Source: Clostridia bacterium (GTDB lineage Bacteria; Bacillota; Clostridia; Oscillospirales; CAG-272). Taken from it: a DNA stretch of 64,000 bases. The position numbers and the translations under genes were made by a program. The stretch is taken from positions 13,083 to 77,082 of the forward strand of contig JAGAMD010000024.1 of NCBI GenBank assembly GCA_017624905.1, read 5' to 3'. Under the pieces are notes generated by a model. The model worked only from the letters and a program-made list of their open reading frames with translations. It did not search any database and had not been told where the DNA came from. Each line of letters opens with the position of its first letter. Within the stretch, counting starts at the first letter, position 1. Shown here one piece after another: positions 16,599 to 59,101 of this stretch.

Positions 16599-18872
16599 AT
16601 GGAAATGTGTGCAAGATGTAAAAAAAGACCGGCTACGGTTTATATAATGAAGCTTGAAAACAACGTGCAAAAGCAAGAGGGACTATGCCTCGTTTGTGCA
16701 AAGGAGCTTGGTATTAAGCCTGTCAACGATATGATGACAAAGATGGGCATCACTGAGGAAGAGCTTGAAAATATGGAAAAAATGTTTGCCGATATGCTTC
16801 CGGCGGTAACCGGTGACGATGATGACGGAGACGAGGATTCTCCAACTATCGATTTTTCAAAAATAATGAAAAATATGGGCGTTGCCGCTGAAACTGACAA
16901 GGACAACAAGGGCAAGAAAAAGGATAAAAAGGGCGATAACAGAAAGCATTTGAATACTTACTGCACCAATCTTACACAAAGTGCTTTGAATGGTAAGCTT
17001 GATAGAATTGTTGGCAGACAAAGAGAGCTTGAAAGAGTAATTCAAATTTTAAGCCGTCGCCAAAAGAACAATCCTTGCTTAATAGGTGAGCCGGGTGTTG
17101 GTAAAACAGCAATTGCCGAGGCTTTAGCCCAAAGAATAGTAGAGGGTAATGTTCCGCATAAGCTGAAGAAATGTGAAATTTATTTAGTTGACCTAACAGC
17201 TTTAGTTGCAGGTACTCAGTTTAGAGGACAATTTGAGGCTAGAATTAATGGTCTTTTGAAAGAGGTTAAGGAAGCCGGAAATATTATTCTTGTAATTGAC
17301 GAAATTCACAATATTGTTGGTACGGGCAACTCTGAAGGAAGCATGAATGCCGCTAATATTCTAAAACCGGCACTTTCTCGTGGGGAAATTCAAGTTATCG
17401 GTGCGACAACGCTTAAGGAATATCGTAAATACATCGAAAAGGATGCTGCTCTTGAAAGACGCTTTCAGCCTGTAAAGGTTGAAGAGCCATCTATTGAAGA
17501 GTGTATCGAAATGATAAAGGGAATTAAGCACTATTATGAGATTTATCACGGTGTTAAAATTTCCGATGAAATTGCTAAAAGTGCAGTTGTAATGAGCGAA
17601 AGATATATAACTGATAGATTTTTACCTGATAAGGCTATCGACTTAATTGACGAGGCTTGTTCACATATCGTCCTTCATTCACCACATATAAACGAAAGAC
17701 ACAATGTCATTGAAAAATTAGCTGAGGTTGATACAAAAACAGAGGCACTAAATGCTAAAATCGCAGAGGGAGGCAAGGAGCCAAACGAAAGCGAATATAA
17801 GCAAATAGCAGAGCTCAAAACAGAACGCTCAATGTTGCTTTTAGATAAGGAAAGACTTGACAAGGAATGCGAAAATACTGTAATGACAAAGCAGGATTTA
17901 GCAGGTGTTATCGAGATTTGGACAGGTATTCCTGCAAGTAACATTTCAGAGGTTGAGTTTGAAATGTTGGCAAAGCTAGAGGACAAAATCAAGTCTCGCA
18001 TTGTTGGTCAAGACGAGGCTGTAAAATCACTTTGCTCGGCTATTAGAAGAAACAGAGCGGGTGTTAGTGTGAAAAAACGCCCGGCGTCCTTCATCTTTGC
18101 CGGACCAACAGGAGTTGGAAAAACCGAGCTTGTAAAAACACTTGCAAGTGAGCTGTTTAATACACCTGACTCACTTATCCGCCTTGATATGACCGAGTTT
18201 ATGGAAAAGCACTCAGTATCAAAAATTATCGGTTCACCTCCTGGATATGTTGGCTATGATGAGGCTGGACAATTGACGGAGAAAATCAGACGCTCACCAT
18301 ACTCAGTAGTTCTTTTTGACGAGATTGAAAAAGCACATCCTGATGTATTAAACATTCTTCTTCAAATTCTTGACGAGGGCAAAATTGCTGACTCACAAGG
18401 CAGAACAATCAATTTTGAAAATACAGTAATTGTAATGACCACTAATGCAGGTGCTACCTTGACCTCCTCACAGGCAGGGTTTGGCTCAAGCACAATGCAG
18501 GTTGCCAAGGAAAAGACCGAAAAGGCACTTTCCTCCTTCTTGCGTCCGGAATTTATCAACAGAATTGATGAAATCATTACATTCCGTTCACTTGAGGAAG
18601 AGGATTTTGTGGAAATAGCAAAGATTATGCTCGGTGATATGAAGGAAGCACTCCTTGAAAGAGGAATTAAATTCACATTTACTAAAAAGGCTTGTGAGTT
18701 TATTGCAAAGGAGTCATTTAGCAAAAAATACGGTGCAAGAAATATGCGTAGATATATTCAAACAGAAATTGAAGATAAGCTGGCTCACGCAATTATCTTT
18801 GAAATTAAGGGCAATATTACAGGCGCTGCCGTTGATGTTAAAAAATCACAGCTTGCTGTTGACTGCATATAA
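16599..18872 (+). CDS. ATP-dependent Clp protease ATP-binding subunit (ClpE/ClpC type, N-terminal CxxC..CxxC)
   Basis: GEPGVGKT and GPTGVGKT Walker A motifs, [20 protein letters not shown]; N-terminal CARC...CLVC. Confidence 0.93.
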
Positions 18873-51212: not shown

Positions 51213-52928
51213 ATGAACATTCCAAGACCTGAGCATCCCAATCCACAATTTGAAAGAGAAAATTGGCAAAATCTAAACGGAGAATGGAAATTTGAATTTG
51301 ATTTTGGTGTAAGTGGTAGAGACAGAAGATTCTATGAAAGAGATAGCTTAAATTCAAAAATTATCGTTCCATTCTGCCCTGAAAGTGTGCTTTCCGGTAT
51401 AGGAAATACCGACTTTTTAAACTGTGTTTGGTATCTAAAAAAGGTAAATATCGAGGACAACGATAAAAACGTAATTCTTCACTTTGGTGCAGTCGATTAC
51501 GAAAGCTACATTTACATAAATCATAAAGAGGTATATCACAATGTTGGTGGATATGTAGGCTTTGATATTGATATTACTGAAGCTGTAAAGCGTGGAGAAG
51601 AAAATATAATTACTGTTTGTGCAATAGATACTCATCCAAAGGGAAAGGCCTCAGGAAAGCAGTCTAAAAATTACTATTCGGGTGGATGTGATTATACAAG
51701 AACAACAGGTATTTGGCAAACTGTATGGCTTGAATATGTTGAAAAAAGCTATATCAAGAGCGTAAAATACTATACAAGTCCGGAGCAAAAGAATGTACAA
51801 ATCGAGGTTGAAGTAGTAGGAAATGCAACATTTACCGCTAAAGCAACATATGAGGGCAAGTTGGAGGGCGAGATTTCCGTTCCGCTTTACGAGGGCATCT
51901 CTCGTGTAACCTTACCACTTGAAGAGCTTTATCTTTGGGAGGTAGGCAAGGGCAGACTTTATGACCTTGAATTGACATATGGAAACGATAAGGTAAAGAG
52001 CTATTTTGGTATTAGAAGCACTCGATTTGACTCTAAACATTACCTATTAAACAATAAGCCGGTATATCTTCGCACAGTTTTGGATCAAGGCTTCTACAAG
52101 AAGGGTATTTATACAGCTGAAACCGAGAAAGAGCTAGTAAAGGATATTTATCTTTCACTTGATGCAGGCTTTAACGGAGCAAGACTACACCAAAAGGTGT
52201 TCGAGCCAAGATTTTTATACCATTGCGATAAGCTCGGCTATATGGTATTTGGTGAAACAGGCAACTGGGGAATAGACTGCTCAAATATGGAACATTTAGC
52301 ACCATTCTTACTTGAATGGCAAAGAGAAATTAATCGTGATTTCAACCACCCGTCAATTATAGGTTGGTGTCCTCTAAATGAAACATGGGACTTTGATTAT
52401 AGACATCAAAATGACGATTTTATAAGAACAATGTACTACGCAACAAAAGCAATGGATTCAACTCGTCCTTGCGTTGGCACAAGTGGTAATTATCAGGTAG
52501 TTTCTGATGTCTATGACCTCCACGACTATCTGCAAAGCAAGGAAGAGTTTGAAAAGATTTACCTTGCAAAAACATATCAAGAGCTTGCAGAAAACTACGA
52601 TAAAATGCATGAGTGGGTATCAAAATATCAAAATAGTAAGGATTATGAAAATTTTGCACTTTACCTCAGTGAATATGGTGGTATTCGTTGGGATACAGAC
52701 GGCGTTGGTGGCTGGGGCTACGGCGATGGGCCAAAAACAGAGAAAGAATTCCTTGAAAGATATGAGTACCTCACAAAAGCTCTCATTGATTCCCCTTATG
52801 TGTGCGGCTTCTGCTATACACAGCTCTATGACGTAGAGCAAGAGGTAAACGGCCTCTATACCTACGAAAGACAACCAAAATTCGACATGGCAAAAATCAA
52901 AGAAATCACCCAATACGGCGACAAATAA
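51213..52928 (+). CDS. Glycoside hydrolase family 2 (beta-galactosidase/glucuronidase-like)
   Basis: PRPEHPNPQ, LNGEW, HFGAVDY, TGIWQTVWLE, NHPSII.W..NE, SEYGG, YTQLYDVEQEVNG. Confidence 0.9.
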   Translation: MNIPRPEHPNPQFERENWQNLNGEWKFEFDFGVSGRDRRFYERDSLNSKIIVPFCPESVLSGIGNTDFLNCVWYLKKVNIEDNDKNVILHFGAVDYESYIYINHKEVYHNVGGYVGFDIDITEAVKRGEENIITVCAIDTHPKGKASGKQSKNYYSGGCDYTRTTGIWQTVWLEYVEKSYIKSVKYYTSPEQKNVQIEVEVVGNATFTAKATYEGKLEGEISVPLYEGISRVTLPLEELYLWEVGKGRLYDLELTYGNDKVKSYFGIRSTRFDSKHYLLNNKPVYLRTVLDQGFYKKGIYTAETEKELVKDIYLSLDAGFNGARLHQKVFEPRFLYHCDKLGYMVFGETGNWGIDCSNMEHLAPFLLEWQREINRDFNHPSIIGWCPLNETWDFDYRHQNDDFIRTMYYATKAMDSTRPCVGTSGNYQVVSDVYDLHDYLQSKEEFEKIYLAKTYQELAENYDKMHEWVSKYQNSKDYENFALYLSEYGGIRWDTDGVGGWGYGDGPKTEKEFLERYEYLTKALIDSPYVCGFCYTQLYDVEQEVNGLYTYERQPKFDMAKIKEITQYGDK

Positions 52929-52968
52929 TAAGAAAAAGCATTTCCCCGAGAGGAAATGCTTTTCTTTT
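52900..52968 (+). repeat. 69-bp direct repeat, left copy (GH2 3' end plus terminator)
   Basis: 68/69 identical to 59033-59101. Confidence 0.95.
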
Positions 52969-53019: not shown

Positions 53020-53048
53020 TTGACATTGAGTAATTGTAGTGTTATAAT
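53020..53048 (+). promoter_or_regulatory. Consensus sigmaA promoter of the fic-hsdM operon, overlapped by TGAGTAA repeats
   Basis: TTGACA-N17-TATAAT. Confidence 0.8.
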
Positions 53049-53084: not shown

Positions 53085-54143
53085 ATGCGTAATTACGATT
53101 ACAAAGATAAATGGAAAAGATTACTTACTCCAGAAATTGTTGCGCTCATTACTAAAATACACGAATTTAAAGGCGAACAAAACAGTTTTCTCGGTGCAAA
53201 AAAAGACACTTTAACTCATCTTGTAAAAATTGCTAAAATACAAAGCACAGAAAGCTCAAATAAAATTGAAGGTATTTATACATCAAGTGAAAGACTTACT
53301 AAAATTCTTAAAGATAAAACACGCCCGGCAAATAGAAGTGAGCAAGAAATTGCAGGTTATCGTGATGTTCTTTCGCTGATTCACGAAAACCATGATTTTA
53401 TTCAACCAAAGTCCAATATGATCTTGCAGCTTCACAAAATGCTTTATAAGTATGGTGGAAATGAAGGCGGCGAATATAAATTCAATGATAATGTAATAAG
53501 TGAAGAGGATAGCGAAGGAAACAAGAGAATCAGATTTACGCCTGTTCCGGCATGGGAAACTCCGGATGCAATGGAAAAGTTATGCCGTGCGTTAGATGAA
53601 GCGATGGCTGATCCAGAAGCTGATGAGTTAATAATAATTCCAATGTTTATTCTTGATTATTTATGTATTCACCCATTTGGTGATGGCAACGGAAGAATGA
53701 GCCGTTTGTTAACGCTTTTACTTTTATACAGAACTGGATATATTGTAGGAAAATACATTAGTATAGAAAAAGCTATTGAACAAACAAAAACAACATATTA
53801 CGAAGCACTTGAAGACAGCTCTTACGGATGGCACGAAAATCAAAATGATTACAGCCATTTTGTAAGATATATGCTCGGTATCATCCTTGGTGCATATAGA
53901 GAATTCAAAGAAAGAGTGCAGCTTGTGATTGAAGCCCAGACTTCAAAACCCGACCGCATAAGGAATCTTATAAAAAACAGTTTTGGAAAGATAACAAAAA
54001 CAGAAATTATCGATCAATGTCCGGATATTAGTCAAGCTACTATACAGCGTGCATTAAATGATTTGTATAAAAAAGGCGATATTTTAAAAATTAGTGGTGG
54101 TCGATATACCGCATATGTTTGGAACCACGATAAGGAGAGTTAA
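53085..54143 (+). CDS. Fic-family protein with C-terminal HTH (class II, autoinhibited)
   Basis: HPFGDGNGRMSR catalytic motif, SNKIEG inhibitory motif, C-terminal wHTH (ISQATIQRALNDL). Confidence 0.92.
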   Translation: MRNYDYKDKWKRLLTPEIVALITKIHEFKGEQNSFLGAKKDTLTHLVKIAKIQSTESSNKIEGIYTSSERLTKILKDKTRPANRSEQEIAGYRDVLSLIHENHDFIQPKSNMILQLHKMLYKYGGNEGGEYKFNDNVISEEDSEGNKRIRFTPVPAWETPDAMEKLCRALDEAMADPEADELIIIPMFILDYLCIHPFGDGNGRMSRLLTLLLLYRTGYIVGKYISIEKAIEQTKTTYYEALEDSSYGWHENQNDYSHFVRYMLGIILGAYREFKERVQLVIEAQTSKPDRIRNLIKNSFGKITKTEIIDQCPDISQATIQRALNDLYKKGDILKISGGRYTAYVWNHDKES

Positions 54144-54145
54144 AA

Positions 54146-55645
54146 ATGATTACAGGCGAACTTAAAAATAGAATTGACGGACTTTGGGACGTGTTTGCAG
54201 CAGGAGGACTTGTAAATCCACTTGATGTAATTGAACAGATAACATACCTTATGTTCATAAAAGATCTTGATGATACAGACAATCTTCGTGCAAAAGAGGC
54301 GGTTATGCTTGGCTTGCCTCATAAAAGCATTTTTGCTGATAAAGTAAAGGTTGGAGATAGAGAAATAGATGGCAATCAACTAAAATGGTCCGTGTTTCAC
54401 GATTTTCCAGCAGGTAAAATGTATTCAACTATGCAAGAGTGGGTGTTCCCGTTTATCAAAAATTTACACGACGATAAAGATAGTGCATATTCAAAGTATA
54501 TGGATGATGCAATCTTTAAAATCCCAACACCATTACTTCTTGATAAAATAGTCACAATTCTTGATGATATTTATGCCCAAATGGCACAAATAAAGGATAG
54601 CGATATCCGTGGAGATGTGTATGAATATCTTCTTTCTAAAATAGCGCAATCCGGCTTAAATGGTCAGTTCCGTACCCCACGTCATATTATCCGTATGATG
54701 GTGGAATTAATGGATCCAAAAGCAGATGAGGTAATTTGCGACCCTGCTTGTGGTACATCGGGCTTTTTAGTTGCTGCAGGCGACTACTTAAAAGAGAAGC
54801 GCAAAGAAGAAATTTTCTTTAATAGACAAAAGAAAGCTCACTATATGAACGGAATGTTCCACGGCTACGATATGGACAGAACCATGCTCCGCATCGGTGC
54901 TATGAATATGATGACTCACGGTGTAGATAATCCATATATTGAATATCGTGACAGCTTGTCCGATCAAAACCCGGATAAGGACAAATATTCACTCATCTTG
55001 GCAAACCCACCATTTAAGGGTAGCCTTGATTATGATACAGTTTCAGCGGATCTTTTAAAAGTTTGCAAAACCAAAAAGACAGAGCTACTGTTTTTAGCGC
55101 TTATGCTTCGTATGCTTCGCGTAGGTGGTAGATGCGCTGTTATCGTTCCTGATGGCGTTTTGTTTGGCTCTTCAACAGCACATAAGGCTATCAGAAAAGC
55201 GATAGTTGAAAACAATCGCTTGGAAGCAGTTATATCTATGCCATCTGGTGTATTTAAGCCATACGCAGGCGTTTCTACTGCAATCCTTATCTTCACAAAG
55301 ACAGGACACGGTGGTACCGATAAGGTTTGGTTCTACGATATGCAAGCTGACGGATTCAGTCTTGATGATAAGCGCACTGAAACCAAAGAAAATGATATCC
55401 CTGACATCATTGCACGCTTCCACAATCTCGAAGCTGAAAATGATAGAGAACGCACCGAAAAATCATTCTTTGTACCAAAGGATGAAATTGTAGGAAATGA
55501 ATACGACCTTTCAATAAATAAGTACAAAAAGACAGAATATAAACCGGTAGAATATGCACCAACAAGTGAAATCCTTGCTGAAATTAACGCACTTGAAGAA
55601 CAAATTCAAAATGGCATAAAAGAACTTGAGGAGCTACTTAAATAA
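54146..55645 (+). CDS. hsdM: Type I restriction-modification methyltransferase subunit
   Basis: GQFRTPRHI, DPACGTSGFL, ANPPF, VIVPDGVLFG. Confidence 0.95.
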   Translation: MITGELKNRIDGLWDVFAAGGLVNPLDVIEQITYLMFIKDLDDTDNLRAKEAVMLGLPHKSIFADKVKVGDREIDGNQLKWSVFHDFPAGKMYSTMQEWVFPFIKNLHDDKDSAYSKYMDDAIFKIPTPLLLDKIVTILDDIYAQMAQIKDSDIRGDVYEYLLSKIAQSGLNGQFRTPRHIIRMMVELMDPKADEVICDPACGTSGFLVAAGDYLKEKRKEEIFFNRQKKAHYMNGMFHGYDMDRTMLRIGAMNMMTHGVDNPYIEYRDSLSDQNPDKDKYSLILANPPFKGSLDYDTVSADLLKVCKTKKTELLFLALMLRMLRVGGRCAVIVPDGVLFGSSTAHKAIRKAIVENNRLEAVISMPSGVFKPYAGVSTAILIFTKTGHGGTDKVWFYDMQADGFSLDDKRTETKENDIPDIIARFHNLEAENDRERTEKSFFVPKDEIVGNEYDLSINKYKKTEYKPVEYAPTSEILAEINALEEQIQNGIKELEELLK

Positions 55646-56118
55646 TGGACAAGCTTTTTGAGTGTCGAGAGATGTTTTTACAAGCACAAGGATTTTCAAA
55701 ATGCGCAGAATTAGTGCGTAATGAGGGAATTGAATGTTCAACTTCTGTAATAGTAAATTATGCATTTGCTTGCGAGGTATATTTAAAATCTTTGTTATGT
55801 TTTTATGATATTTCATTTAAGAAAAAACACAAATTGAGAGATATGTATGATTTGCTATCTAAAAAAGCAAAAGAGTACATAAAACTGTATGCTTTTGATG
55901 AATACGGCAGTTGGGATACTTGTTATTTAGAGAATATTTCAAATGCATTTGTTGATTGGCGATATAGCTATGAAACAGTTGGAATAAAAAGAGCATCAAT
56001 GCAAATTAAAACAGGATTTTTAATAGCGTTAAATAACGCACTTAGAGAGTTGTGCACAAACGAGTTTTTTGGAATAAGTTATGACAAATTCAGGAGAATA
56101 AATTTTGAGCAAAAATAA
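55645..56118 (+). CDS. HEPN-like domain protein
   Basis: NYAFACEVYLK...H.L..MY..L...ISNAF..WRYSYE; start overlaps the hsdM stop. Confidence 0.6.
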   Translation: MDKLFECREMFLQAQGFSKCAELVRNEGIECSTSVIVNYAFACEVYLKSLLCFYDISFKKKHKLRDMYDLLSKKAKEYIKLYAFDEYGSWDTCYLENISNAFVDWRYSYETVGIKRASMQIKTGFLIALNNALRELCTNEFFGISYDKFRRINFEQK

Positions 56119-56641
56119 TAAAAACAAAAATAAACAACAGAATAATAATTCACAAAAAATTGTAGTCCAAGAATTTGACTATGATAAATTGGCTGAGGCG
56201 ATAATTAAAGCACAGAAAAAAGTAGAAATTGTACCACAAGAAGATGACGATGAAGAAACATTTGTAGAAAAAGCAGTAACTGGGAAAATACAACAAGGCA
56301 AGTTGTTTCCACAAAGTTTATCTAAATTGATGCAGGCATTTTTCTACGTATTAGCAGTGGCAATAGCTCTATCTATGCTGTTGGTAATAGCACTAATAGT
56401 AATAGGTATTATCAACACAGGGTGGAGTGATATAGAAGTCGTTTTTACGAACATTTACCTAATAGCTATAGCAGTTTTATCTGTTCCCATCGTTAGTGTT
56501 GCAGTTGTAATAATGTTTAAAATAGCTAAAGAACTAGGGGCTGAAAAGGATAAAAACTATATTATTTCTTCTTTTTCTAGCGTTGTAAGTTTTGTAGCTT
56601 TGATAGTTGCATTAATAGCACTTTTTAAGGGGGTAGGATGA
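56105..56641 (+). CDS. Hypothetical membrane protein (about 3 TM)
   Basis: Three hydrophobic stretches; overlaps both neighbouring ORFs. Confidence 0.7.
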   Translation: MSKNNKNKNKQQNNNSQKIVVQEFDYDKLAEAIIKAQKKVEIVPQEDDDEETFVEKAVTGKIQQGKLFPQSLSKLMQAFFYVLAVAIALSMLLVIALIVIGIINTGWSDIEVVFTNIYLIAIAVLSVPIVSVAVVIMFKIAKELGAEKDKNYIISSFSSVVSFVALIVALIALFKGVG

Positions 56642-57777
56642 TGGCGAAATTAGGTGATTTGGGAAGAATAATAACAGGAAACACACCAAAAACATCTGAG
56701 GTGTTGAATTATTCATCAAATGATATTTGCTTTGTTAAGCCAAGTGATATATTAGATGGTGAAATAACAAAATTAACAAAAACTGAGTTTTATATTTCTG
56801 AGTATGCGCGTCCAAAAGCTCGCATATTACCACCTAAAAGTGTTTTAGTTACTTGCATTGGAATCATAGGCAAAGTAGCGATTAATGATGTGGAATGTGC
56901 CTTTAATCAGCAAATTAATGCTATTATTCCGGATTTCAGAAAATGCCTAACGGAATATTTAGGATATGCAATTCAAAACAAACAAAAAGAAATGCAAGAT
57001 ATTGCTAATGCCCCAGTTGTTCCAATATTAAACAAAACTCAATTTTTAGAGATTGAAGTTTCTTTGCCCTCAATTGAAGAACAAGTTGAAATTGTTGAAA
57101 AAATAAATGCAACTGATAAATTAACTTCTTTACGCAAAGAACAGCTTGCAAAAATGGATGAGCTTGTAAAATCCCGATTTATCGAGATGTTTGGAGATGT
57201 TAAAGATGAAGAAAAAGTAACCTTGTCAGATATATGCTTGATTATTACTGACGGAACTCATCAACCTCCCAAATTTACAACCACTGGCATACCGTTCCTA
57301 TTCGTTTCTAACATTGTGGGGAATACAATAACCTATGATGCGGAAAAATTCATATCCCAAGAAACTTATGACGAACTAATAAAGCGCACACCAATAGAAA
57401 TTGGAGATGTGTTGTTATCGACGGTAGGATCATATGGTCATCCGGCAGTAGTAAAAAGCGATAAACCATTCTGCTTCCAAAGACATATAGCATATTTGAA
57501 GCCGAACAAGGAGCTGATTGATAGCGAATATCTACACGGAGCGATACTTTCCGTAGATGTACAGAAGCAGATTGAAGAACGAGTAAAAGGAATTGCTCAA
57601 AAAACCTTGAACTTGTCTGAAATAAGAAAAATCAAGCTGCCGTTACCAAGAATTGACGAACAAAAGCAATTTGCCGCCTTCGTCGAACAAGTCGACAAAT
57701 CGAAATTTGAAATTCAAAAGAGCCTTGAGAAACTCGAAACACTAAAAAAATCATTAATGCAAAAATACTTTGGATGA
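56638..57777 (+). CDS. hsdS: Type I restriction-modification specificity subunit
   Basis: Two TRDs (TGNTP.., DGTH.PP), LPSIEEQ and LPRIDEQ conserved regions, LVKSRFIEMFG, SLMQKYFG. Confidence 0.93.
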   Translation: MMAKLGDLGRIITGNTPKTSEVLNYSSNDICFVKPSDILDGEITKLTKTEFYISEYARPKARILPPKSVLVTCIGIIGKVAINDVECAFNQQINAIIPDFRKCLTEYLGYAIQNKQKEMQDIANAPVVPILNKTQFLEIEVSLPSIEEQVEIVEKINATDKLTSLRKEQLAKMDELVKSRFIEMFGDVKDEEKVTLSDICLIITDGTHQPPKFTTTGIPFLFVSNIVGNTITYDAEKFISQETYDELIKRTPIEIGDVLLSTVGSYGHPAVVKSDKPFCFQRHIAYLKPNKELIDSEYLHGAILSVDVQKQIEERVKGIAQKTLNLSEIRKIKLPLPRIDEQKQFAAFVEQVDKSKFEIQKSLEKLETLKKSLMQKYFG

Positions 57778-57790
57778 GGTGTATTGGAAT

Positions 57791-58180
57791 ATGGAACTGA
57801 AAGATTTAGCTCCTTGGATAGCAATAGCAATTACACTTGCGCTTTCTATATTGGTGCCATTGTTTACACAAATAGCAAACAACCGTCATCAACGCAAATT
57901 GCAACAAGAACAATTCGAGAGAGAAGAAAGGCAAAAGAAAGCAAAAGCGTATGAGGCATTTTTGTCTGAGGTTGGAGGAATTATAACAGCTAGAGGTTTT
58001 GTAGATGCCCAATATTTATCTAAAGCGGGTGCTTCTTTATATCAAGTTTATATTTATTCACCAGCAGAGTGGCACGAAGATTTAGATGCATTAACCGAAT
58101 ATATTATGAAAAAAGATTGGGAACAAGCAAGAAAGTTGATTCAGCTATTCAGCCGTTTAATATCAATAGAATTAAAATAG
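57791..58180 (+). CDS. Hypothetical single-TM protein with coiled coil
   Basis: PWIAIAITLALSILVPLF then a Q/E/R-rich helix; ATG 57791 after GAGGTG. Confidence 0.7.
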   Translation: MELKDLAPWIAIAITLALSILVPLFTQIANNRHQRKLQQEQFEREERQKKAKAYEAFLSEVGGIITARGFVDAQYLSKAGASLYQVYIYSPAEWHEDLDALTEYIMKKDWEQARKLIQLFSRLISIELK

Positions 58181-58231
58181 TTTTAATTAAATTTAGAAAA
58201 TGCCAAATTAAGAATGGAAAGGAGAGTAACA

Positions 58232-58885
58232 ATGGATGTTTATGTAATTGGAAATGGATTTGACTTGCAACATTTGTTGCCAACAAAATATATCAATTTC
58301 CTCAATGTGGTTAATTTCTTGATAAGTTATTATGATAAAGAAAATATGAAAACAGTTGGAGATGTTTTTTCTAAATTAGCAAACGGGATCAATCCACTAG
58401 ATGATATGCCCGTTCCGGAAAACGATATAGTAAACAATGTTCGCTTATCTCGATGTTTTTTCTATGTATCTGATATTCTTCGTCAGATAATAGAAAATAA
58501 AGGTATAACTAAAAACAAAAGAAGTTCTAAAATACCATTTTCTATCACCGAAGAACAAATCGCAAGATTTGAATATTCTAAAGAACCAATTTCTCTTAGT
58601 GAAATTTCAAAAAGAATTTTCGCGGTAGCAGAAAATGACAATATGGAAAAAATAACGTATAAACAAATGCTTCAGTGGTTGATTGAAATAGGACTGTTGT
58701 ATGTAAATAGCATAGATGGAGAAAAATCTGAAAAACTACCAACAGAACAAGGAAAGCAAGTAGGAATAGCAATTGAGAATAGAAGAGGACATCGAGGAGA
58801 ATATAAGGTTATTACCTATAATATTGAGGCTCAACGATTCATTGTAGATAACATCGGAGCAATAATAGCTACTATAAACAAATAA
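58232..58885 (+). CDS. Chimeric ORF: AbiH-like N-terminus fused to an unrelated clostridial hypothetical domain
   Basis: VIGNGFDLQHLLPTKY..F (AbiH-like start) followed by KLANGINPLDD..VNNVRLSRCFFYV; ATG 58232 after AAGGAG. Confidence 0.6.
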   Translation: MDVYVIGNGFDLQHLLPTKYINFLNVVNFLISYYDKENMKTVGDVFSKLANGINPLDDMPVPENDIVNNVRLSRCFFYVSDILRQIIENKGITKNKRSSKIPFSITEEQIARFEYSKEPISLSEISKRIFAVAENDNMEKITYKQMLQWLIEIGLLYVNSIDGEKSEKLPTEQGKQVGIAIENRRGHRGEYKVITYNIEAQRFIVDNIGAIIATINK

Positions 58886-59000: not shown

Positions 59001-59032
59001 TGTGTCACAAAAAGTTAGACAAACAAATAGCC

Positions 59033-59101
59033 AAGAAATCACCCAATACGGCGACAGATAATAAGAAAAAGCATTTCCCCGAGAGGAAATGCTTTTCTTT
59101 T
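59033..59101 (+). repeat. 69-bp direct repeat, right copy (contains bidirectional terminator)
   Basis: One A>G difference from 52900-52968. Confidence 0.95.

Follow-up and report, generated by a model that had tools for sequence, protein, structure and literature searches.

A type I restriction-modification cassette of a Clostridia bacterium that has probably lost hsdR by deletion, and the membrane protein gene at its hsdM-hsdS junction

This analysis concerns an operon in a stretch of 64,000 nucleotides (nt) from a Clostridia bacterium (Oscillospirales, CAG-272; GenBank assembly GCA_017624905.1, contig JAGAMD010000024.1, positions 13,083 to 77,082), the whole of which is called the window in the following. 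Seven open reading frames (ORFs), all on the plus strand and tightly coupled, span positions 53085-58885 and encode, in this order, a Fic-domain protein, the methyltransferase subunit HsdM of a type I restriction-modification (RM) enzyme, a HEPN-like protein, a protein with three transmembrane stretches (3TM), the specificity subunit HsdS, a protein with one transmembrane stretch (1TM) and a chimeric polypeptide. The endonuclease subunit gene hsdR is missing, and a first-pass annotation of the window had taken this absence for the mark of a new defence architecture. We consider the locus to be a truncated type I RM cassette from which hsdR was lost by deletion, and not a new nuclease-free design, with a probability of roughly 0.8; the solitary state of the methyltransferase is the product of a recent deletion with a visible scar. 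A decayed restriction locus in itself is ordinary. The wider meaning lies in the type I RM cassette clade of gut Clostridia to which it leads, with two insertion slots and recurrent residents, among which 3TM is a habitual resident of the hsdM-hsdS junction.

The scar is found in the last ORF, which follows the 1TM gene inside the element, so that the 1TM gene is not the final gene as had been annotated. This ORF displays a weak match to the AbiH family, in its N-terminal part only. Its residues 7-53 are identical at 45 of 47 positions (96%) to the N-terminus of an AbiH protein of 404 amino acids (aa; P0174), and its residues 43-220 align with residues 5-188 of P0171, an unrelated protein of 439 aa, at 44% identity; the two matches meet at nt 58372/58373. 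Of a full-length AbiH domain (about 260 profile positions) only the first 47 residues or so are present. AbiH is encoded between hsdS and hsdR in three related loci (L005, L006, L092), and given this position the structure is explained by a deletion that began at codon 53 of abiH, took out hsdR and ended in the gene beyond it. This internal deletion fused abiH codon 53 to approximately codon 16 of the downstream gene.

Contigs of two samples (X2, 1165 nt; X3, 1184 nt) cross the joint at 58372/58373 without differences, and the joint is real DNA and no assembly artefact. In contigs from two other studies (X4, X5) the fit to the window starts exactly at 58372. The loose end of 30 letters in X4, read in frame by eye, gives KIEYTKMFI(D), which is identical to residues 6-15 of P0171 at 8 of 10 positions; hence the right-hand gene occurs unbroken in other strains. 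The right half of the chimeric ORF (58373-58885) belongs to an unnamed domain of about 125 residues, which occurs as a tandem duplicate in P0171 and P0172 and at the C-terminus of P0173 (674 aa), a protein whose N-terminus resembles a signal sequence by eye. No Pfam family was found for P0171, P0172 or P0173.

Loci related to the one in the window carry hsdR as a rule. A scan of the genome collection with the HEPN-like family yielded 28 loci, and the six closest (36-46% identity) all have the order Fic-HsdM-(0-2 ORFs)-HEPN-like-HsdS. HsdR is present in all five of these that have downstream DNA, the contig of the sixth stopping inside hsdS. It is a protein of about 1100 aa with DUF4145, HSDR_N, ResIII and EcoEI_R_C domains, placed after variable cargo: AbiH in L005 and L006, unknown ORFs in L007 and L010, and, for L004, another hsdS along with genes for an integrase and a TIR protein. 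A scan of metagenomes with the 3TM family, together with one genome locus, gave 65 loci; HsdR is encoded in 16/16 of those in RM context with at least 5 kb of downstream DNA, and in 22 loci overall, L092 having it split in two pieces. None of the 21 related loci with enough DNA lacks hsdR, which lies in cis in every relative, about 0-5 kb 3' of the 3TM gene. The order of the full cassette is Fic-HsdM-[slot 1: HEPN-like, 3TM or both, or other small genes]-HsdS-[slot 2: variable cargo, e.g. AbiH or TIR]-HsdR, and this cassette is widespread in gut and rumen Clostridia.

The cargo before hsdR in L004 (L004:11662-20472) comprises a TIR protein of the CAP12/Pycsar type, a tyrosine recombinase and a second hsdS of 741 aa. 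It further includes an AAA_23 protein and, at 17288-17713, another HEPN-like paralogue, which is divergent (31% identity).

The element in the window is repeat-bounded, as had been annotated; the direct repeat is 78 nt long, and its copies are 95% identical and flank an insert of 6133 bp at the 3' end of a glycoside-hydrolase (GH2) gene. No hsdR was found within this insert, also in agreement with the first reading. Two congeners (L111, L112) show the empty site, with a single repeat copy and the GH2 gene joined straight to the right flank, and the 6.1-kb segment is therefore an insertion. The promoter in front of fic agrees with the consensus at 12/12 hexamer positions and is the sole full match among 27 promoter-like sites, a total that is not above that of shuffled sequences (mean 25.3). 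The terminator in the right repeat closes the transcription unit. The remainder forms a single transcription unit from the consensus promoter to the duplicated terminator, in which fic, hsdM, the HEPN-like gene, 3TM, hsdS and the 1TM gene are intact. M2S1 may still be made and methylate a bipartite target, and the locus would be unable to restrict; the element would behave as a solitary methyltransferase with passengers. Fic may act as a SoFic-like self-inhibited AMPylase, and the HEPN-like protein may be an accessory of uncertain catalytic competence.

Methylation by M2S1 without R is described in passages of the report on the TgvAB system (PMC11411939). The window resembles solitary type I methyltransferases in that hsdM and hsdS are intact and hsdR is absent; it differs from them in that its state is that of a recent deletion with a scar and not of a long-standing orphan.

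The first-pass annotation inferred a possible design without HsdR: M2S1 would sense anti-restriction proteins or serve as their decoy, and the endonuclease would have Fic, HEPN or membrane effectors in its place. Such a selected defence would fit the six intact, tightly coupled genes behind the consensus promoter and the match of Fic to the SoFic defence model, and PrrC is a precedent for an effector guarded by an RM enzyme. We regard it as very improbable. The expected consistent absence of hsdR from homologous loci turned into its routine presence; the deletion joint lies exactly at the abiH/hsdR place of the relatives; and the HEPN-like and 3TM genes occur in complete R-M-S loci, so that neither replaces HsdR. 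The alternative named in the same annotation, a decayed RM locus, gains support from the joint and from the hsdR genes of the relatives.

A search with TIGR00348 and a tblastn search with the HsdR of L005 found no match in the assembly (1.51 Mb, 39 contigs, 74.7% complete), so a matching hsdR elsewhere in the genome, which would have spoken for a working enzyme, was not seen in the part that is assembled. The absence of hsdR from the organism is not proven, because the assembly is 74.7% complete. With respect to a complete type I system, the window locus has HsdM and HsdS, and HsdR is missing. Subunits of type I enzymes can be exchanged within one family, and a compatible hsdR in the unassembled quarter of the genome might join the M2S1 of the window and restore restriction in trans. 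This is improbable, given that the 1.51 Mb at hand hold no hsdR-like sequence, that the relatives always have hsdR in cis, and that the other ORFs of the genome with an N6_Mtase domain are all of other kinds. One of these is an open frame of 1067 aa (G000:C5:65239-66204; L002; N6_Mtase E 4.9e-38), which probably encodes a restriction-methylase fusion of some other type and is no hsdR.

Several observations count against a recent loss of hsdR by deletion. Six intact genes behind a perfect promoter fit continued selection as well as they fit a recent deletion. One study supplied X2, X3 and the probable source sample, so that the contigs of X2 and X3 are not fully independent. The DNA to the left of 58372 is not seen in X4 and X5, and an intact hsdR there would be our extrapolation. 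With the assembly complete to 74.7%, the missing part may hold an hsdR. Despite these points, a truncated cassette is the reading that we prefer. The features of the locus are listed in Table 1.

Table 1. Features of the element and its boundaries (positions in the window).
Feature	Position	Strand	Remarks
Left direct-repeat copy	52891..52968	.	Last 38 nt of GH2 gene (51213-52928) and GH2 terminator hairpin
Sigma-70-type promoter, consensus	53020..53048	+	TTGACA-17-TATAAT with TG; 37 nt 5' of Fic start
Fic-domain protein, 352 aa, SoFic-like, C-terminal winged-helix-like tail	53085..54143	+	Pfam, PADLOC, NCBIfam
HsdM, type I N6-methyladenine (m6A) methyltransferase subunit, 499 aa, apparently intact	54146..55645	+	2-nt gap after Fic
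HEPN-fold protein (fold supported by model), 157 aa, non-canonical site	55645..56118	+	1-nt overlap with HsdM
3TM protein, 178 aa	56105..56641	+	14-nt overlap with HEPN-like
HsdS, 379 aa, two target-recognition domains	56638..57777	+	4-nt overlap with 3TM
1TM protein, 129 aa counted from ATG	57791..58180	+	13-nt gap after HsdS; variable cargo
Chimeric ORF, 223 aa, deletion marker	58214..58885	+	Codons 7-53 = abiH start; from nt 58373 unrelated P0171-like gene body
Right direct-repeat copy	59024..59101	.	Contains terminator hairpin 59067-59096, end of operon

These coordinates bear out the tight single operon with overlaps and gaps of 2-13 nt that had been described, and the assignments of Fic as first gene, HsdM and HsdS stand as well, Pfam and PADLOC being in agreement. 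The Fic ORF matches Pfam Fic (E 6.1e-14) and has SoFic as its best PADLOC model (E 2.9e-39, residues 31-346); against the SoFic equivalog of NCBIfam it scores 47.5 bits, far under the cut-off of 550. The core motif HPFGDGNGRMSR is intact in its translation, and the N-terminal part holds SNKIEG. We take HPFGDGNGRMSR to be the HxFx(D/E)GNGRxxR core, and SNKIEG presumably fits the inhibitory-helix motif. HsdM displays the N6_Mtase (E 1.9e-66) and HsdM_N domains and matches the PADLOC model MTase_I (E 3.4e-183) across residues 1-499. The stretches NPPF and DPACGTSGF are visible in its translation, the latter taken here as the S-adenosylmethionine-binding motif. HsdS matches Pfam Methylase_S in two stretches (E 4.4e-39) and PADLOC Specificity_I at residues 3-378. 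The HEPN-like, 3TM and 1TM proteins match no model of PADLOC v2, its PDC candidates included. Membership in the MADS system was considered and rejected, since the scores are far under the cut-offs (MAD2, 105 bits vs 720; MAD5, 49 bits vs 400) and reflect only generic similarity of methyltransferase and S subunits.

The 3TM protein contains three hydrophobic stretches, in agreement with the membrane label it had been given. It has 216 homologues at E<=0.001, and the family has a common build: a basic N-terminus, an invariant (E/D)IDYDKLAxAI helix, a variable linker with TM1-TM2, a conserved loop E..EKD.NY between TM2 and TM3, and a conserved TM3. Among 25 members, the mean pairwise identity is 78-79% in the two ends and 23-25% in the middle. 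In the near-identical locus of X4, residues 39-146 (window 56221-56543) are swapped for 270 unrelated letters while the ends fit, and the variable block is exchanged as a cassette. No family match was found for 3TM in Pfam, NCBIfam, PADLOC or PHROGs, and no Foldseek match in the PDB at E<=0.001; the ESM Atlas yields only unnamed Bacillota clusters. No relatives were found in viral contigs.

Among the 65 loci of the 3TM family, which include the near-duplicates L080 and L081, 41 adjoin hsdM and/or hsdS. In 32 loci the 3TM gene is preceded by hsdM, which is either complete or truncated where the contig stops; it is directly adjacent in 19 of these and separated by a small gene in 13 (HEPN-like in 4). 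An hsdS gene lies directly downstream in 34, starting at -55 to +29 nt, the distance in L090 being 493 nt with a HEPN-like gene between; the junctions of the 3TM gene are mostly overlapping. The RM context is ambiguous in one further locus, five loci are too short to judge, seven have flanks available without RM genes, and 11 are prophage-like, with only a remnant of about 90 residues of the hsdM C-terminus 5' of the gene. The RM loci fall into three families. Family A has an HsdM 74-94% identical to that of the window and an HsdR with DUF4145 and EcoEI_R_C; in family B, HsdM is 55-57% identical to it; and in family C it is 22-26% identical and 576-701 aa long, accompanied by an HsdR with a T1R_D3-like domain. 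A maximum-likelihood tree of 18 3TM proteins is poorly resolved apart from one starred split (97/98), which groups two loci of family A with four of family C. This split indicates that the 3TM gene has moved between RM families and still lies between hsdM and hsdS. The question put by the first-pass annotation, whether homologues of the embedded ORFs recur in hsdM-hsdS loci, is thus answered strongly in the affirmative for 3TM and for the closest HEPN-like branch, and by this recurrence the embedded ORFs are not random inserts.

The prophage-like loci (L049, L050, L052, L059, L061, L068-L070, L074, L075, L082; e.g. L049:2999-3806) lie near holin and virion genes. 3TM is fragmentary in some of them, and the hsdM remnant is of family B, 49% identical to residues 430-521 of the HsdM of L055. 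They look like a captured RM junction that is carried by a phage lineage.

How usual embedded genes are can be seen in 399 genomes of the class that were drawn without selection. A close HsdM is encoded in 33 of them, and 26 loci with downstream information were fetched. The usual state is hsdM followed directly by hsdS (23/26), and embedded genes occur in 2 loci, possibly 3. Within family A of this draw, Fic lies 5' of hsdM in 6/16 loci; embedded genes are confined to Fic-bearing loci and occur in 0/9 of those without Fic. All 18 family-A loci that were found via HEPN-like or 3TM and have upstream DNA carry Fic. As these loci are related to one another, the counts do not amount to a statistical test.

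On the basis of its sequence and setting, 3TM probably serves type I RM systems as a partner or effector in the membrane. Three features suggest that its role is linked to the methyltransferase core: the position is fixed, the junctions overlap, and the position is kept after transfer between families. A tentative form of this idea, to which we give slightly less than even odds, is that 3TM works with the core, which it would either tether to the membrane or, as a membrane effector in the style of PrrC, obey as long as M2S1 restrains it. That it is an autonomous embedded defence gene is a possibility we take seriously without favouring it, and a role of some other kind is unlikely. A bolder proposal, which we think somewhat doubtful, would make 3TM a fourth, membrane-embedded part of many type I enzymes, its cytosolic N-terminal helix and TM2-TM3 loop docking M2S1. 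If true, docking would hold the enzyme at the membrane, the place of entry of foreign DNA, or would ready an abortive response that damages the membrane when the core has been put out of action, and the hypervariable block of linker and TM1-TM2 would record an arms race with phage proteins. Two facts speak against a tie between 3TM and the RM core. The seven loci with flanks free of RM genes and the 11 prophage-like loci with nothing but an hsdM remnant show the gene outside complete cassettes, and the N-terminal motif stays invariant though HsdM of family C is only 22-26% identical, which argues against a family-specific contact with HsdM.

To our knowledge, the recognised components of type I RM enzymes include no membrane protein. 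An old observation holds that type I enzymes associate with the membrane. If 3TM tethers or guards the enzyme, it would be a new component for one of the longest-studied defence systems and would provide a concrete handle on this association. A literature search over a limited collection, which did not cover the full family lists of the embedding survey discussed below, turned up no description of a membrane protein gene at the hsdM-hsdS junction, and the association of 3TM with type I RM seems unreported.

The HEPN-like protein was labelled from its sequence, and the label stands in part: the fold is matched, while the Pfam match stays under the threshold and the canonical histidine is absent. 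Against Pfam HEPN (PF05168) the protein scores 19.2 bits, with a gathering cut-off of 22; among its 50 homologues at E<=0.001, precomputed PF05168 matches exist on 5. An AlphaFold model has a pLDDT of 86.4. The six best hits of a VIA structure search are HEPN-domain proteins or described homologues (Z 9.4-11.7: 4nqf 11.7, 1ufb 10.3, Csm6 HEPN 10.0, sacsin HEPN 10.0, 1wol 9.8, 2hsb 9.4), with an AMPylated HEPN toxin (Z 8.4) and AbiV (Z 7.8) in lower rows, a Z below 13 not being decisive for helical bundles. The best Foldseek rows are HEPN as well and are weak (E 0.019), and a profile of the family gave nothing meaningful against PDB sequences. A four-helix up-down HEPN fold is supported for the modelled protein by the consistent list of structural matches and by the sub-threshold Pfam match.

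An alignment of 24 members displays the invariant stretches AFACEV..K, H62 and S..AF..WRY.YE, that is, the residues E44, K48, H62, W105-R106-Y107, Y109 and E110. The Rx4-6H motif is incomplete: R106 is invariant, and the sequence that follows (WRYSYETVG) has no histidine 4-6 residues on. A histidine at +5 of R106 occurs in only 4/24 members and is absent in 20/24, the window protein included. The invariant E44, K48, H62 and E110 suggest an altered or non-catalytic site, as far as can be judged from the alignment. With HEPN-MNT toxins, the Csm6 HEPN domain and AbiV, the protein shares the fold and an arginine at the helix-loop junction, the usual place of the motif; unlike the HEPN-MNT toxins, none of the members examined has an MNT partner beside it.

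HEPN-like genes lie in RM loci in 6/28 genome loci and in five metagenome loci. In 21 of the other 22 genome loci the surroundings are relaxases, integrases, Hachiman-like genes, TIR with RhuM, or type III RM, and this variety indicates a mobile stand-alone gene whose closest branch has settled in slot 1. In one locus (L009:237-5287) an HsdM_N fragment stands by itself downstream of the HEPN-like homologue (38% identity), along with two Gabija-like genes, for an OLD-family ATPase-TOPRIM protein and a UvrD helicase. Two further ideas about the protein were set aside. A relation to, or dimer with, the DUF4145 domain of HsdR was rejected at an hhalign probability of 1%. The notion that Fic serves specifically to AMPylate the HEPN-like protein, in analogy to MntA-HepT, is a remote idea only, with Fic loci that lack HEPN-like genes and 21 HEPN-like loci that lack Fic and MNT.

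It is already established that type I RM loci harbour nested genes, be they accessory or defence genes in their own right. According to the main text of the guilt-by-embedding survey of Payne et al., type I RM, BREX, DISARM and Hma host embedded genes, in 3,231 embedded families (10.1101/2024.01.29.577857), and parts of the TgvAB report describe defence genes nested in the RM locus of VPI-2 of Vibrio cholerae (PMC11411939). The window cassette is like these in its recurrent nesting between restriction components, with cargo that varies among similar loci, and recurrence is found for 3TM (41/65 loci, three RM families) as well as for the HEPN-like family (the RM loci counted above). It is unlike the survey's cases in that 3TM is tied to the single hsdM-hsdS junction across families and not to a general cargo slot. 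The main text of the survey mentions no Fic, membrane protein or AbiH, and its HEPN example HEC-08 is another protein, of the DUF3644 type, in which the Rx4-6H motif is intact (10.1101/2024.01.29.577857).

It is conceivable that the HEPN-like and 3TM genes are autonomous passengers, defence or selfish genes to which the hsdM-hsdS junction offers a safe place and co-expression, and which are linked to the RM enzyme neither physically nor functionally. We hold this to be a real, if minority, possibility. Many independent systems nest in type I RM, as stated in the main text of the survey (10.1101/2024.01.29.577857), and TgvAB functions without HsdR activity according to the passages cited (PMC11411939). 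In the present data, 21/28 HEPN-like loci lie in other mobile or defence contexts, 3TM occurs without RM in L072, L093 and L047 and in the prophage-like loci, and its hypervariable middle is swapped as a block in X4. On the other hand, 3TM keeps one exact position in three divergent RM families, also after transfer, and other cargo lies mostly between hsdS and hsdR.

PrrC is the model for an effector that is kept silent by an RM core; it is a larger protein with NTPase and nuclease domains. The embedded genes of the window resemble PrrC of the EcoprrI type I RM locus as accessory genes nested among hsd genes and co-expressed with them. They differ from PrrC and RloC in that the HEPN-like protein is a single domain of 157 aa with no ATPase family match and without the histidine of Rx4-6H, and 3TM differs from PrrC as a membrane protein without nuclease features, for which guarding is here only proposed. 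PrrC itself is almost exclusively embedded in type I RM, according to the main text of the survey (10.1101/2024.01.29.577857).

SoFic acts by abortive infection via AMPylation, as described in part of the work on this system (PMC12249575). The Fic protein of the window is like SoFic in its core motif and best PADLOC match. It is unlike SoFic in that its gene opens a type I RM operon and in its distance from the 550-bit cut-off, and no small downstream antitoxin of the AS1 type is evident, hsdM following after 2 nt.

The 1TM protein has one hydrophobic stretch, as annotated, and appears as an N-terminal membrane anchor with a helical domain. Its family is real (86 representative clusters at E<=0.001); a profile search of the fetched RM loci, of 398 further genomes of the class and of viral contigs found no member. 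1TM is treated here as one more variable cargo gene.

Two parts of hsdS, a central one (57052-57293) and a C-terminal one (57657-57777), are conserved and reach contig depths of up to about 2500 in gut runs, and contig joints bypass the second recognition domain (57198 to 57661). These depths and joints reflect either hsdS genes that belong to other abundant organisms or variants of hsdS that are shuffled or of half size.

The 3' end of the GH2 gene with its terminator is a variable site in the genus. Other inserts are found there in L109 and L110, and the terminator is duplicated each time. One congener carries an insert of 5.8 kb at this site, with a UvrD-like helicase that has topoisomerase zinc ribbons, an amino-acid permease and an amidohydrolase, and another carries an insert of 1.5 kb with a permease.

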